Source: an uncultured Gemmatimonadales bacterium
Lineage (GTDB): Bacteria > Gemmatimonadota > Gemmatimonadetes > Longimicrobiales > RSA9
Length of the DNA stretch: 64,000 nt
Reading direction: 5' to 3'
Assembly (NCBI GenBank): GCA_963708135.1
Contig: OY970192.1
Span: forward strand, 3,968,001-4,032,000
Shown here: piece after piece, positions 24,524 to 30,032 of the stretch
How positions within the stretch are numbered: the first letter of the stretch is position 1
Layout: each line of letters starts with the position of its first letter
Made by a program: the position numbers and the translations under genes
The notes under the pieces: model-generated
The model's database searches: none
Seen by the model: only the letters and a program-made list of their open reading frames with translations
Told to the model about the DNA's origin: nothing

Positions 24524-25468
24524 ATGGCACGACTCTCCGAGGAGCAGCTCAAGCAGAAGGTCCAGGATGGCTACATCCTCGAGTCGCCGGACGAGATGAC
24601 GGACGGCTACCGCAAGGCGCTCATCGTACAGCTCCTCGTCCAGGGCGACACGGAGCTCATCAGCGCGCCCGCCTACTGGATGGCCGCGCAGGATGCGCCG
24701 TCCACGAACACCCAGGTCTCCGCCGTCGCGATCATCCAGGATGAGCTGGCGCACGCCAACATCGCCTATCGGATCCTCGAGGACCTCGGGCTGGACAAGG
24801 AGCAGCTCGTCTACGGCCGCGAGCCGCACGAGTTCAAGCACCCCTACGGTTTCGACCAGCCCCTGGAGAGCTGGGTGGAGCTCGTCACGGCCAACGGCTT
24901 CTTCGATCGCGCGGGCATCACGCTGCTCTCGGACGTGTACAAGAACACCTCCTACGGGCCGCTCAAGCGGGCCCTCGTCAAGGTGGACCTCGAGGAGACG
25001 TTCCACCTGCGCCACGGCGAGGTATGGATGAAGCGGCTCGCGCAGGCGGGAGGTGAGGCGCGCGAGAAGCTGCAGCGGGCGGTCGATTGGATGTTCCCGA
25101 TGACGATCGAGTGGTTCGGCCTGCCGGACGAGATGAAACGTCACAGCGGGCAGCTCGAGTACCGGCTGAAGGGACTCACGAACGACCAGCTCCGGCAGGT
25201 CTGGATGTCCTCCACCGTGCCGCTCTGCGAGTCGCTCGATCTGGATGTCCCCGCTCACTGGGATGAGGAGGAGCAGCGGTACGTGCTCGACTATCCCTTC
25301 CCCTGCCGCTACGACGCGTCGGAGAAGCGCTGGCTCTTCGAGCAGGGCCAGATCACGTGGGACCAGGTCTTCGAGCGCTGGAGGGCGCGCGGCCCGATGA
25401 ACGAGCGCTACGTCGAGAGCGTCCGCCGCAGCCACGCGCCGATGAACCGGATGCTGAACGCCGCGTGA
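24524..25468 (+). CDS. paaA: Phenylacetyl-CoA epoxidase large diiron subunit (PaaA-like)
   Basis: Ferritin-like diiron motifs DTE, QDELAH, D, EETFH; YRKALI, APS..., LQRAVDWMFP. Confidence 0.8.
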   Translation: MARLSEEQLKQKVQDGYILESPDEMTDGYRKALIVQLLVQGDTELISAPAYWMAAQDAPSTNTQVSAVAIIQDELAHANIAYRILEDLGLDKEQLVYGREPHEFKHPYGFDQPLESWVELVTANGFFDRAGITLLSDVYKNTSYGPLKRALVKVDLEETFHLRHGEVWMKRLAQAGGEAREKLQRAVDWMFPMTIEWFGLPDEMKRHSGQLEYRLKGLTNDQLRQVWMSSTVPLCESLDLDVPAHWDEEEQRYVLDYPFPCRYDASEKRWLFEQGQITWDQVFERWRARGPMNERYVESVRRSHAPMNRMLNAA

Positions 25469-25860
25469 GCGCTCCGGGCGAGGTTTCCCGCTCCAACTCC
25501 GCGGGCGTGAGCGAGGCCGCGGGAGCCCGGCCCGCCACCGGCGCCATCGAGCCGGGCTCGGAGGCGCTCTGGCAGGCGCTGCGGGAGGTGAACGATCCCG
25601 AGTTTCCGATCAGCCTCGTGGACCTCGGCCTGGTCTACGGTATCCGCCGCGCCGGCCCGCTCGTGGAGGTGGACCTCACCTTCACGGCCACGGCCTGTCC
25701 CTGCATGGACTTCATCGAGGAGGACGTGCGAAATCGGCTGCTCGAGGAGCCCGGCGTCGAACGGGTCGAGATCCGCCAGGTGTGGGATCCGCCCTGGACG
25801 CGCGAGCGGATGACTGAAGAAGGAAGGGCCGCGCTGCGCCGCTGCGGCGTCGCCGCCTAG
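25465..25860 (+). CDS. DUF59/MIP18 metal-sulfur cluster assembly protein (PaaD N-terminal part)
   Basis: LREVNDPEFPISLVDLGLV, TFTATACP, VWDPPWT..RMTEEGR. GTG overlaps the paaA stop. Confidence 0.85.
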   Translation: MSAPGEVSRSNSAGVSEAAGARPATGAIEPGSEALWQALREVNDPEFPISLVDLGLVYGIRRAGPLVEVDLTFTATACPCMDFIEEDVRNRLLEEPGVERVEIRQVWDPPWTRERMTEEGRAALRRCGVAA

Positions 25861-25890
25861 CCCCGCGCCCCGAAACCCGAGCCCCGAGCC

Positions 25891-26094
25891 ATGGTCTACG
25901 AGGTCTTCGCACGCAAGAGCCGCGGCGAGCCGCTGCGCCACATCGGCAACCTCAACGCGCCCGACGACGAGCTCGCGCGCGTGTACGCCTACAACACCTA
26001 CGACGAGGAGAAGTGGTTCGACATGTGGATCGCGCCGCGTGACCGCTTCCTCGAGGTGTTCAACGTCGACCGCGCCGCCGGGACGCCTTTCTGA
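25891..26094 (+). CDS. paaB: PaaB-like small epoxidase subunit
   Basis: YEVFARKSRGEPLRHIGNLNAPDDELA..YA motif typical of PaaB, plus operon position. Confidence 0.8.
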   Translation: MVYEVFARKSRGEPLRHIGNLNAPDDELARVYAYNTYDEEKWFDMWIAPRDRFLEVFNVDRAAGTPF

Positions 26095-26897
26095 TGGCGA
26101 CGACGCCGACCGCCGACGCCGCGTCGGACCTCCAGCCGCCGGTGCGTGAGGCGCTCCGCGACCTTATCCTCGTCCTCGCCGACAGCAAGCGCCTCCTCGG
26201 CACCCGGTACGCCGAGTGGATCCTGGGTGCGCCCGAGCTCGAGACCGGCATCGCCTGCGCTTCGATGGCCCAGGACGAGTGGGGGCACGGCCGTCTCTTC
26301 TACGCCATGCTCAAGGACTTCGGCGAGGATCCCGGACCGCTGGAGCACGACCGGGAGCCGGCGGACTATCGCAGCCTCGAGCCGCTCGACCGCGAGCCGG
26401 ACGGCTGGCCCGACGTCGTCGCCCTTTTCGCGCTCGCCGATGCCGCCCTCTCCGCCCAGATCGAGGCGCTCCGCGGCTCGGCCTACGCGCCGCTCCGCCA
26501 GCGCGTGGAGAAGCTGCTGGTCGAGGAGCGCTTCCACGCCGCCCATGGCGCCGCCTGGGTCCACCGCCTGGCCGGCACGGAGGACGCCCGCGCTGCCCTC
26601 GCGGCGTCCTGCCGCGCCATGCTGCCCTCCCTCGCACGCTGGTTCGGGCCCGACTCCGAGCGCGCCCGCGCGCTCGTCCAGGCCGGCATTGCCGATGCCG
26701 CGGGTGGGGCACTCCGTGCCCGCTTTTACGAACGCGTCGCCCCGCTGCTCGCCGCGGTCGGCGTCGAGACCACGACCGCCGAACCCGACTTCGACGGCTT
26801 CGATGAGGGCGCCCGTCGCGGCCATGCCGGCGCCCCCGATGCCGCGACCATCGCCCACGTGCGCGGCGACCTGAACCGCGCTTTCCTGATGGACTGA
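26094..26897 (+). CDS. paaC: PaaC-like structural epoxidase subunit
   Basis: LAD.K.LLG.RY.EW..GAPELE..IA..SMAQDEWGH, EERFH motifs. Confidence 0.8.
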   Translation: MATTPTADAASDLQPPVREALRDLILVLADSKRLLGTRYAEWILGAPELETGIACASMAQDEWGHGRLFYAMLKDFGEDPGPLEHDREPADYRSLEPLDREPDGWPDVVALFALADAALSAQIEALRGSAYAPLRQRVEKLLVEERFHAAHGAAWVHRLAGTEDARAALAASCRAMLPSLARWFGPDSERARALVQAGIADAAGGALRARFYERVAPLLAAVGVETTTAEPDFDGFDEGARRGHAGAPDAATIAHVRGDLNRAFLMD

Positions 26898-26899
26898 CC

Positions 26900-27100
26900 G
26901 TGGCCGACCTGCACGACCCCGCCGACACCGCCGCCCGCATGGGCCTGCCCGTCGCCGTCCGCTGCCCCTTCTGCGAGCGCGACGATACCGAGCTCCATTC
27001 CCCGTTCGGCTCCGCGCTGTCCGTCGCCACCTACTGGTGCCGTCGCTGCCACACCGCCTTCGAGTGGTTCAAGTGGGGCGCCGAAGCCGGAAATAAGTAG
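26900..27100 (+). CDS. Stand-alone PaaD-type zinc ribbon
   Basis: CPFC..DTE..SPFGS......YWCRRC..AFEWFK matches the C-terminal ribbon of PaaD. Confidence 0.75.
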   Translation: MADLHDPADTAARMGLPVAVRCPFCERDDTELHSPFGSALSVATYWCRRCHTAFEWFKWGAEAGNK

Positions 27101-27313
27101 CGAGCCTCGCAACAAAGATCCCGCCCTTTCGGGTATCTTCGGGATCCCCGGCGCGCTCCCCGACAAGCCTGCAAGCTACTTCCAGTCCACGATTTGAGCC
27201 TCCGTTCCATCACCTCCCCGGCACCGGGAACGTGCCTTGCCCCACCGCCGGGCCGGGAGTGACGAAGCTCCCTGACAGTGCGGAAGCGACGCAGCTTCGC
27301 AACAAGACATGGA

Positions 27314-27403
27314 CGCTGCTCAGAGCAAAGCCGCCGAAAGGCGGTGGCGCAGAGCCACGGGGCTACAGCGGTTCAGGCCGCCATGTCCGCCGGGCCGCCA
27401 GCG
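27314..27403 (+). ncRNA. c-di-GMP-I (GEMM) riboswitch aptamer, A20 variant (predicted c-AMP-GMP sensing)
   Basis: P1 CGCTG/CAGCG; GCTCAGAGCAAA junction; P2 GCCGCC-GAAA-GGCGGT; GGCGC-AGA-GCCACGGG; 3' GCCGGGCCGCC. Colinear with the Vc2 aptamer layout. Confidence 0.82.
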
Positions 27404-27472
27404 ATTCGACACCATCGTCGAGGCTGGTGGCCCGTTGCGTTACCGGCCCGACCGCACCCGGAGGAGTGATCC

Positions 27473-27619
27473 ATGGGCAGTGCAGTCGGAATCCTCCTGA
27501 TGTTGTGCCTGCCCCTGATGGTGAGCTTCATCGTCATCTGCCTCACGGCCGCGAAGGCGCTCTACAACGAGCAGGAGCGCCTGGTCACGCTCTCACGGAG
27601 CGAGGCAACGACGAGCTGA
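27473..27619 (+). CDS. 48-aa single-TM microprotein downstream of the riboswitch (absent from ORF track)
   Basis: GGAGGAG RBS at 27460-27466; MGSAVGILLMLCLPLMVSFIVICLTAAKALYNEQERLVTLSRSEATTS*. Confidence 0.7.
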   Translation: MGSAVGILLMLCLPLMVSFIVICLTAAKALYNEQERLVTLSRSEATTS

Positions 27620-27877
27620 TCCGGCCGCCTCACGAGCACCGGGGGTACGCCCCTCCAAAGTTGGCCGCCGCGCCGGGTCGACGAGGAAAAGCGACGACTC
27701 CCACCGGCCGTAACTCCGCGGGCCTCGCAAACCCGCGCTCGCCCCACCACCGACTCTACCGGACTGCTTGCTCCCGGTGCCGGGGCCCGGATCTCGCGGC
27801 GGCTCTCGATTCCTTCGAGGGCCGCCGCTCGCTCATCCGCCTCCCACCATCCTCTGCTCTGCTCACCGCGATCCCAA

Positions 27878-28874
27878 TCAGGCGCGGCCGCGCCGGTCCT
27901 GGAACCAGCGAACGGTCGGGGGCAGCCCTTCGTCCAGGCAGCGGGGCGTCCAGCCGAGTTCGCGCGTCGCCTTGTCGTGGGAGTGGAGCCAGCGCAGCCC
28001 GGCCGCGGTGGCGGCGTTCTCGCGCGAGATCGGAAACCGAAGGCCGGTGGCGCGGGAGAGCACGTCCAGCAGGACGCCGGTCCAGCGGACGAGTGGAGCC
28101 GGAAAGCGCAGGCGCGGCGGCCGCTTCCCGGCGAGTGCCACCACGCGGCCCGCGAAGTCGTCCAGCCTGGCGGGCTCGCCCGAGAGGACGTAGGTCTCCC
28201 CAGCCACACCGCGCTCGCCCGCCGCGAGGAGTCCATCCACCACGTCATCCACGTGGACGTACGAGAACCAGGAGGGGATGGAGCGGGAATCCGGGGATCC
28301 GTCCCGCCAGCAGGTCCTTCACGAAGCGGCCGTTCGGCCCCTCGTCTCCGGGCCCGTACACGTTGGCCGGCGCCACGATCACGACCGGAAGCCCCCGGCG
28401 CTGGGCTGCCACCGCGAGCCGGTGCGCCGCCGTCTTCGTCCGCTCGTATTCGGAGGTGAAGCGCGGGCCGTGCTCGGAGCCCTCATCTCCCTCGCCCGCG
28501 GCCACAGGTCCGAGCGCCACGGTAGTCGAGACGTGGACCACGCGCGCGGTGCCGGCGCCCTCGATGGCCGCCAGGAAGACGCGCGTTCCCTCGACGTTCG
28601 TGCGCCGCATCGCCGCCGCGTCCACCACGCCGATGTCGTAGTACCCGGCCAGATGGTACGCCAGCTCCGCGCCGGCGAGGCCCCGCGCCACGGCCGCCTC
28701 GTCCCATGTCTCCCCGACGAACAGCTCGGCGCCCAGGCGCTCCAACTCGCCGGTCCGCGAGGTGGGCCTCACCAGACAGCGCAGCCCGGCCCCTCCCTCC
28801 GCCAACCGGCGGGCCAGCCGCGTGCCGATGAACCCCGTCGCCCCCGTCAGAAACACCAGCCGCCGGTCCGCCAT
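27878..28874 (-). CDS. NAD-dependent epimerase/dehydratase, frameshifted
   Basis: TGATGFIG, YHLAG, YERTK, VYGPGD. Continues as SWFSYVHVDDVV if one base of the G4 run at 28274-28277 is removed. Confidence 0.85.
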
Positions 28875-29565: not shown

Positions 29566-29868
29566 ATGGCTCGCACCACAGGCACCGTGAAATGGTTCTC
29601 GCAGGAGAAGGGCTACGGGTTTCTCCAGCGGGAGGGCGGACCGGACGTGTTCGTGCACTACAGCGCGATCGAGGGCTCCGGCTTCAAGGTCCTCTACGAG
29701 GGGGAGGAGGTGGAGTTCGACGTCGTCGAGGAGGCCAAGGGCCCCAAGGCCGCGAACGTCGTCCGCCTGAACCCGCCCGCCGAGGCCCCGCGCCGCGGTG
29801 GCGAGAGCCGGCCCGGCGGCACGGGCCGCGGCGACTACAGTGCCGGGCGCGGCGAGCCCCGCTACTAG
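29566..29868 (+). CDS. Cold-shock domain protein with Gly/Arg-rich tail
   Basis: GTVKWF..EKGYGFL (RNP1), DVFVHYSAI (RNP2), [16 protein letters not shown]. Confidence 0.95.
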
Positions 29869-30032
29869 TGGACCGCATCTGAAGTTCGGTGAGCACCGAG
29901 CCGGCGGAGCGGGCGCGAAGCGCAAGGCGCGAGGAGGAAGGAATAGCAGCGCTATTTCGACGACGAGCAACGCGGCGGGTCGCGTCCGATCCGCCGGCGA
30001 ATGCCATCGCTACTTCGGATACGGTCCACTAG
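29865..30032. mobile_element. MITE-like non-autonomous element, CTAG-bounded
   Basis: Terminal inverted repeats CTAGTGGACCGCATCTGAAGT / ACTTCGGATACGGTCCACTAG (19 of 21 match), nested inner inverted repeats, no coding capacity. Confidence 0.7.

Follow-up and report, generated by a model that had tools for sequence, protein, structure and literature searches.

The window analysed here, a 64-kb stretch of a genome that consists of one contig and is 97.65% complete, carries a riboswitch unit beside housekeeping genes. Upstream of the unit lies a phenylacetyl-CoA epoxidase-like cluster (24524-27100, +), the parts of which score below NCBIfam cut-offs. PaaD is represented in it by two pieces, an Fe-S assembly domain and a zinc ribbon encoded on its own; the ribbon gene was found in 65 of 73 family genomes. 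The convergent neighbour is a NAD-dependent epimerase gene (27878-28874, −) that is split into two frames near 28274, probably by an assembly error, since a short-read contig lacks one base there. A ~146-nt element after a cold-shock gene (~29864-30010) occurs in about nine near-identical copies (91-100%) across the genome, along with shorter matches. The unit itself consists of a promoter-like site, a GEMM-I aptamer with its expression platform, a 48-aa open reading frame, a conserved non-coding 3' element and a strong hairpin that separates it from the epimerase gene.

The aptamer (27314..27403, +) is recognized by the Rfam model RF01051 (c-di-GMP-I/GEMM-I) at 27314-27402, scoring 57.6 bits (E 1.2e-08) where the gathering score is 35, over the full model (positions 1-87), and it is the sole match at gathering level in the window. 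None of the Rfam c-di-GMP-I variant families (GGC, UAU) outscored RF01051, which is the best of its clan. A first-pass annotation made from the sequence had described a full GEMM-I layout here and named a covariance-model search as a check; with a match well above gathering and with P1 (CGCTG/CAGCG, 27314-27318/27399-27403), a GNRA-capped P2, P3, A47 and C92 all present, that description is upheld. The numbering of the Vibrio cholerae Vc2 aptamer, which has the same whole fold, was transferred through the Rfam paired columns together with Vc2 pairs given in two publications (G14-C93, G21-C46, C22-G45, G50-U89, and A48-U90; PMC5049679, PMC11705072). In this register position 20 is A (27324), as had been read by eye, 43 is G (27347), 47 is A (27351), 48 is G (27352), 90 is C (27396), and 92 is C (27398). 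G20, the mark of c-di-GMP-selective Vc2-type GEMM-I, is absent, the A48-U90 pair of Vc2 is replaced by G48/C90, and the copy has the combination of A20 and C92 by which GEMM-Ib (c-AMP-GMP) riboswitches are told apart in sequence. Short-read contigs of a possible source run agree with the assembly without a single difference over the overlapping pieces 26900-27379 and 27350-28107, and a relative from a different habitat has just 3 letters and 2 gaps changed across 27317-27412. The stretch 27314-27402 is confirmed as a genuine GEMM-I aptamer with the A20/C92 pattern.

This copy is one of five GEMM-I matches in its genome. Two of these have A20, namely the window copy and one that precedes a 797-aa Ig-domain lipoprotein, while the three G20 copies likewise precede lipoproteins. 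RF01051 also matched in 37 of 61 related genomes, and all 126 family hits in these were read as an unbiased set; three were unscorable, one of them a cut-off, misregistered match that still stands among the 65 G20 rows of the counts given below. Among the scorable hits, A20 was joined by G48 in 53 of 55 cases and by A48 in two, G20 was joined by A48 in 62 of 64 and by G48 in two, and four copies combined C20 with A48. C90 is present in 51 of the 53 A20/G48 copies, and since it is also present in 27 of the 62 G20/A48 copies, C90 does not force G48. Because A48 of Vc2 forms a Hoogsteen pair with U90 (PMC11705072), G48/C90 is by analogy probably a swapped pair adjoining the ligand pocket. The first-pass annotation had proposed that G at positions 43 and 48 might shift specificity further. 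The A43G change was rejected as a determinant, as both A and G occur at 43 in A20 copies and G43 is seen in one G20 copy; G48, by contrast, is non-random, in that it tracks A20.

The coupling of positions 20 and 48 is seen in two aptamer backgrounds, long and short. On a tree of 123 aptamers built with both columns masked, it corresponds to 7 changes, at least 4 of which are forced by well-supported branches, while an underpowered independent-pairs test with only 4 pairs was not significant (median p 0.5). In the long subtype A20 has almost never reverted, with one G20 case, itself below gathering score, against 42 A20 copies. P1 varies in step among the subtype copies, and the invariant J1/2 and the G48/C90/G91 changes around the pocket extend across many phyla. 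The A20/G48 form occurs in 32 of the 61 related genomes, and the long-form pattern matches at least 124 stretches in GTDB; the 80 matches listed fall mostly in Gemmatimonadota, followed by Nitrospirota, Acidobacteriota, and deltaproteobacteria. Judged by its sequence, A20/G48 is a multi-phylum GEMM-I subtype and not a one-off. Pfam searches of 76 downstream proteins, hand-picked from 126 candidates, returned mostly Ig-like/fn3 domains on secreted proteins, together with some cytochromes, receivers and GAF proteins, one kinase and one GGDEF protein. Two other arrangements came to light in the same set. Four copies with C20 and A48/U90/C92 (L260, L264, L268, L272; genomes G054, G050, G044, G020) have a pattern that fits neither c-di-GMP nor cGAMP types, and at one locus (L025, genome G008) two aptamers stand in tandem before a single lipoprotein gene, A20/G48 first and G20/A48 second, which could make a leader with two inputs or two thresholds. 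Literature searches for such riboswitches in Gemmatimonadota, Nitrospirota or Acidobacteriota were without result, and no mention of the A20-G48 link was met in the text examined, although the primary GEMM-Ib and variant papers and their supplements may already contain the subtype.

What such a pocket binds can be approached through characterized A20 aptamers. The first-pass annotation had taken A20 as the signature of cGAMP preference, and while the A20/C92 pattern is real, A20 alone does not fix selectivity: as reported, the Vc2 G20A mutant binds both ligands (53 vs 120 nM), Cbe 1-2 of Clostridium beijerinckii binds c-di-GMP better (30 vs 463 nM), and A20 riboswitches take up c-di-GMP through a protonated adenine (PMC6140456). 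Aptamers with A20 span the range from ~1000-fold selective to c-di-GMP-preferring (PMC6456294, PMC6140456), and since they can prefer either ligand, sequence cannot settle which one is used here. The window copy resembles Geobacter GEMM-Ib riboswitches (Gs1761, Gm0970) in A20, C92, and A47, in a surface-protein regulon, and in a logic by which ligand prevents a terminator, which for the window copy is a prediction. It differs from them in having G48/C90 and an invariant J1/2, whereas in one Desulfuromonadales genome the Geobacter-type A20 copies that were read carry A48; in its genome, which has neither a Hypr GGDEF nor a cGAMP-type HD-GYP; and in its output, a microprotein plus a 3' element. 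With the bispecific Cbe 1-2 and Vc2 G20A (PMC6140456) it shares the A20 pocket, a c-di-GMP-producing background, and, probably, binding of c-di-GMP via protonated A20, while its subtype is set apart by G48 and by a fixed P1/J1-2 sequence. Further sources consulted are PMC5473149, PMC5888326, PMC8835794, PMC3764141, and 10.64898/2026.01.30.702909. c-di-AMP was rejected as a ligand on account of C92.

The enzyme inventory of the genome does not support the cGAMP signalling that had been proposed for this lineage. Hypr GGDEF enzymes have Ser in place of Asp (PMC6456294). The genome has 12 GGDEF domains, ten of which bear the motif and have Asp at the Hypr position, with no Ser, Thr or Asn there, and two of which are degenerate; none of the 12 has Ser at the position of GacA Ser348, and no orthologue of the Hypr enzyme of relatives was found in the genome. 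The cGAMP-type HD-GYP signature is Rxx(Q/N) (10.1101/600031). No such signature was found among the five HD_5 matches, four of which have the canonical Rxx(K/R) and the fifth of which lacks such a motif. The SMODS cyclase family (PF18144) has no match in the genome, while the control was positive in 3 of 14, and PF21654, searched for CD-NTases, matched neither here nor anywhere in its control. Of the 11 PF01909 frames, the four longer ones were read; by eye none is CD-NTase-like, and they resemble other proteins. Of the two enzyme searches that the first-pass annotation had named, the one for Hypr-type GGDEF was negative over all 12 domains, and the one for CD-NTase synthases gave no candidate among the models and frames covered. 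Two DAC proteins are present.

We give a probability of roughly 45% to the reading that the pocket is cGAMP-capable and that its working ligand in this organism is c-di-GMP. According to this reading, c-di-GMP would bind via protonated A20 less tightly than it does at the genome's three G20 copies, and the unit would therefore be on only at high c-di-GMP. The enzyme inventory speaks for c-di-GMP, as do the retention of the subtype in 32 of 61 related genomes, a Hypr enzyme being present in only 5 of these 32, and the 17 of 44 subtype genomes of the phylum in which a pattern search placed no non-Asp GGDEF. Against it stands the near-absence of reversion at A20, for which selection for an adenine-containing ligand is as good an account as selection for a threshold. 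The enzymes of other subtype-bearing organisms stand against it as well. Outside Gemmatimonadota, non-Asp GGDEF proteins are found in 26 of 31 subtype genomes (27 hits, one false), a count made in subtype-bearing genomes only, and the 19 non-Asp loci read there comprise 14 Ser, 4 Asn, and one false case. In Nitrospirota, Acidobacteriota, and deltaproteobacterial genomes the subtype occurs together with Ser-type Hypr enzymes, and for 50 of the 80 GTDB loci listed, 38 genomes had a non-Asp GGDEF pattern hit.

It is possible, if rather less probable, that the subtype is a selective 3',3'-cGAMP sensor in which G48, paired to C90, acts as a second determinant, and that cGAMP is produced in this lineage by a synthase that is recognisable neither as a Ser-type Hypr enzyme nor as a SMODS protein. 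The near-strict pairing of A20 with G48 and of G20 with A48, its recurrence in both aptamer backgrounds and on the tree, the coexistence of A20 and G20 copies in one genome (two and three here), and the Ser-type Hypr enzymes beside the subtype in other phyla and in 6 of 61 relatives all point in this direction. The genome itself points the other way, as it offers no candidate synthase or cGAMP-type phosphodiesterase and its four longer nucleotidyltransferase-domain frames look like other proteins; the non-significant independent-pairs test weighs on the same side. Of 23 pattern hits among the relatives, 6 proved to be real GGDEFs, which gives a Ser-type GAF-GGDEF in 6 of 61 genomes; this Hypr enzyme is found in 5 of 32 genomes with A20/G48 and in 1 of 29 without (Fisher p 0.2). 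Across 301 genomes of the phylum, a pattern search placed a non-Asp GGDEF in 27 of 44 genomes with the subtype and in 78 of 257 without, leaving 17 of the 44 with none. Most of this excess comes from one family with an Asn-type enzyme, for which all 30 loci read have Asn, and within that family the link to the subtype is weak (26/30 with vs 65/95 without, p 0.06); moreover, the literature searched, as far as its text was accessible, contained no demonstration of cGAMP activity for an Asn-type GGDEF. As observations in their own right, the GAF-GGDEF family with Hypr serine and GGDEF motif (L337-L342; genomes G030, G058, G006, G020, G004, G052) comprises candidate cGAMP synthases in Gemmatimonadota, and the Asn-type GGDEF (L403-L413, L419-L448) is conserved in 91 of 125 genomes of one Gemmatimonadota family.

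Two further explanations both appear unlikely. One is that the window copy is a relic, leaky or constitutive after loss of a cGAMP synthase. The patchiness of Hypr enzymes in the order (6/61) and a U tract weaker than that of its orthologues would agree with decay, but the aptamer core and the competing strand described below (10 of 10 pairs) are intact here and, across many genera, in dozens of genomes without a Hypr enzyme, and the relative from a different habitat has hardly changed over the aptamer. The other is that the subtype reads another purine dinucleotide, a scenario with about the same low probability. The invariant J1/2 and the G48/C90/G91 changes round the pocket in many phyla, together with the frequent absence of known cGAMP enzymes, speak for it; yet C92 still demands guanine and A20 a purine edge, c-di-AMP misfits C92 despite the two DAC proteins, and Ser-type Hypr enzymes do co-occur with the subtype elsewhere.

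Transcription of the unit appears to depend on sigma54. A sigma54 (-24/-12)-type promoter site lies at 27226..27240 (+), where 9 of 11 letters agree with the sigma54 consensus, while a scan for sigma70 promoters found none. The genome encodes one sigma54, and the site is retained at 4 of 4 orthologous loci. Such a site is found within 160 nt upstream of 22 of 30 long A20 copies against 1.8 expected from shuffles (12 further copies lacked flank), of 5 of 15 G20 copies against 1.4 expected (50 lacked flank), and of 27 of 120 GTDB loci against 7.1 expected. In the interval between promoter and aptamer there is a small leader hairpin (~27257-27275), and a similar loop recurs at 4 of 4 orthologous loci.

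The expression platform (27392..27443, +) consists of a competing hairpin and a weak U tract. Strand 27423-27433 complements the aptamer 3' strand 27392-27402 and is mutually exclusive with P1; in the window copy all 10 of 10 pairs can form, followed by 4 U in 10 nt, a weaker tract than in the orthologues. The hairpin is present in the free fold, 15 kcal/mol below the forced aptamer fold. Competing strands with at least 9 of 10 pairs are found in 30 of 42 long A20 copies against 2.9 expected, usually with 5-8 U next, in 6 of 65 G20 copies against 2.3 expected, and in 0 of 15 short A20 copies. By sequence, the hairpin is a terminator whose 5' arm is the P1 strand of the aptamer, intrinsic in most relatives, and ligand should therefore allow read-through. 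We infer an ON switch: a sigma54-driven leader would carry the A20/G48 aptamer; without ligand, the hairpin would consume the P1 3' strand and, in most relatives, end in a U run as an intrinsic terminator; with ligand, P1 would be locked and the hairpin blocked, and read-through into the 48-aa ORF and the 3' element would follow. Translational control through masking of the Shine-Dalgarno site was weak in constrained folding and was set aside, with access to the site moving from 0.32 to 0.39 between states and access to the start codon being 0.14 and 0.62. Because the U tract is weak and the change in Shine-Dalgarno access is small, the switching strength of the window copy is uncertain.

The next gene on the same strand, as had been proposed, is a 48-aa ORF (27473..27619, +) preceded by a Shine-Dalgarno-like GGAGGAG (27460..27466, +). 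Its product has an N-terminal hydrophobic helix and a polar tail, belongs to no known family, and is modelled by single-sequence AlphaFold as one long helix. The first-pass annotation had called it unannotated, which is right insofar as no function has been assigned, but it already exists in a gene-call database as a singleton from this contig. ORFs of this kind (28-85 aa, with a ribosome-binding site, a hydrophobic N-terminus, and a start within 130 nt) follow 8 of 42 long A20 copies, from 7 genomes with that of the window included, whereas they follow none of the 65 G20 or 15 short A20 copies and were met at 9 of 6000 random positions. Codon composition is consistent with coding (GC3 0.90, GC2 0.44; binomial p 0.001), although by a synonymous-codon score the ORF does not stand out among 4018 other short frames, since 33% of them reach a value as high. 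The paaD zinc-ribbon gene, with 65 matches in 73 genomes, served to locate syntenic orthologues; the stretch following it was read at 30 loci, and a riboswitch was found at four of them (genomes G000, G006, G002, and G080). Orthologues of 45-46 aa, ~30% identical to the window protein, are encoded in G006 and on a metagenome contig (L349); in the contig search, two of three hits were riboswitch-plus-microprotein loci, one of them identical to G006, and the third was unrelated.

The G006 and L349 orthologues differ with pN 0.09 and pS 0.62, two paralogues in genome G011 with pN 0.15 and pS 0.60, and two cross-genus pairs, over ~20 codons, with pN/pS of 0.21/0.46 and 0.30/0.37. These comparisons of sequence show purifying selection on the syntenic orthologues. 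A contig from another study covers 27509-27760 and carries no gap or stop in the ORF among the differences listed, which, sorted by hand, leave six codons silent and change the residue in six, with the hydrophobic part carrying one change only, a silent one. Because of the selection on its orthologues and the unbroken frame in this contig, the 48-aa gene is very probably real. Conservation is seen in the syntenic orthologues; homology search with the protein returned only itself. Pfam and NCBIfam contain no family for it, the best ESM Atlas score (0.86) is at chance level, the genome has no paralogue, and a 9-sequence profile found six proteins, five of them training members and the sixth a new relative of the G011 pair. 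In segment-shuffle tests of the eight microproteins, the window protein shows a resemblance to its counterparts in G006 (p 0.013) and G012 (p 0.038) only. As the effector of the switch, which is the part it had been assigned, the protein qualifies as a real and selected next gene, but it is not an invariant output, as two orthologous loci lack the ORF. Its most likely role would be to tune a membrane partner within the surface or biofilm programme that other copies of the subtype control.

The element 3' of this gene (27636..27780, placed on the plus strand as its presumed strand of action) is a conserved non-coding sequence of ~145 nt, with a closing stem (27636-27645/27771-27780) and a conserved core (27717-27737), known from four loci and with modest structural support. 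It is common to 4 of 4 orthologous loci and is followed in each by a terminal hairpin; in the window, the strong hairpin at 27796..27828, between the unit and the convergent epimerase gene, is the probable transcript end, and in two orthologues a plus-strand hairpin with a U run lies at the matching place. Searches of Rfam returned no family for the element at E up to 1, and it matched neither a tRNA nor a repeat. No further copies were found beyond the orthologous loci, either by pattern (3 of 251 genomes) or by model (4 of 73 genomes). Separately, a second shared non-coding hairpin of ~70 nt occurs 3' of the microprotein ORFs of genomes G012, G032, and G035 and, more loosely, G019 (L029, L040, L221, L039), with no Rfam match.

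The 3' element may be the conserved output and the ORF an accessory. A transcript that is dual-function, or a riboswitch-gated small RNA into which the microprotein was inserted, can be reconciled with either ligand and is a tentative reading that we hold to be possible but not probable. Its best evidence comes from G002 and G080, where the promoter, aptamer, terminator, element, and terminal hairpin with U run are kept after the paaD zinc-ribbon gene and no ORF with a ribosome-binding site is found; in addition, three genera share the core but not the spacer that precedes the promoter, and the second group of microprotein loci has a shared 3' hairpin of its own. Set against this, the element is known from only four genomic loci, two of them from one genus, and searching 73 genomes with a model gave no additional copy. 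The window copy folds no better than shuffles (z 0.34, with -0.8, -2.3, and -2.5 in the other three), 4 of 30 consensus pairs covary with a covariation term of about zero, and its action may be at the DNA level or from the opposite strand.

The small protein also invites comparison with the C. difficile CD1980.2 family, in which, by the description in PMC13724677, a GEMM-I riboswitch likewise lies directly before a membrane-associated protein of 50-60 aa missed by annotation. These are OFF switches, whereas the window copy is predicted to be an ON switch; the C. difficile protein is a 58-aa, four-helix one with a C-terminal hydrophobic helix, whereas that of the window is N-terminal; and the family is described as confined to C. 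difficile. In the same organism GEMM-I riboswitches precede type I toxins (PMC13724677), and the window protein would suit such a module, with an antisense antitoxin, in its size, its single hydrophobic helix (hydropathy 2.95 over 17 residues), the structured 3' region, and terminator-like sites on the minus strand at 27692-27711. We nevertheless regard a toxin as improbable: the gene is a single chromosomal copy adjoining housekeeping genes, the protein has no Pfam or NCBIfam match and a tail that is not strongly basic, loci without the ORF still retain the 3' element, and the sigma70 scan gave no antisense promoter.

Taken together, these observations describe a sensor that dozens of genomes carry without the synthase known for it. 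Either A20 would serve to tune c-di-GMP thresholds, or textbooks would lack a cGAMP synthase. The determinant of cGAMP versus c-di-GMP selectivity in A20 riboswitches has been stated to be open (PMC6140456), and the A20/G48 subtype, in which position 48 follows position 20 almost always, is a natural and testable candidate for it. A bolder version, which we consider rather unlikely, would make A20/G48 a cGAMP-selective, multi-phylum subclass, served in soil Gemmatimonadota by a synthase of a new kind and gating here a dual-function microprotein/small-RNA transcript; if that were true, G48-C90 would be an unrecognised second determinant, and some relatives would keep a structured small RNA without the microprotein. 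In either case, while C. difficile already provides examples of small membrane proteins under riboswitch control, this locus adds a selected microprotein output, and possibly a riboswitch-gated small RNA, in an understudied soil phylum.
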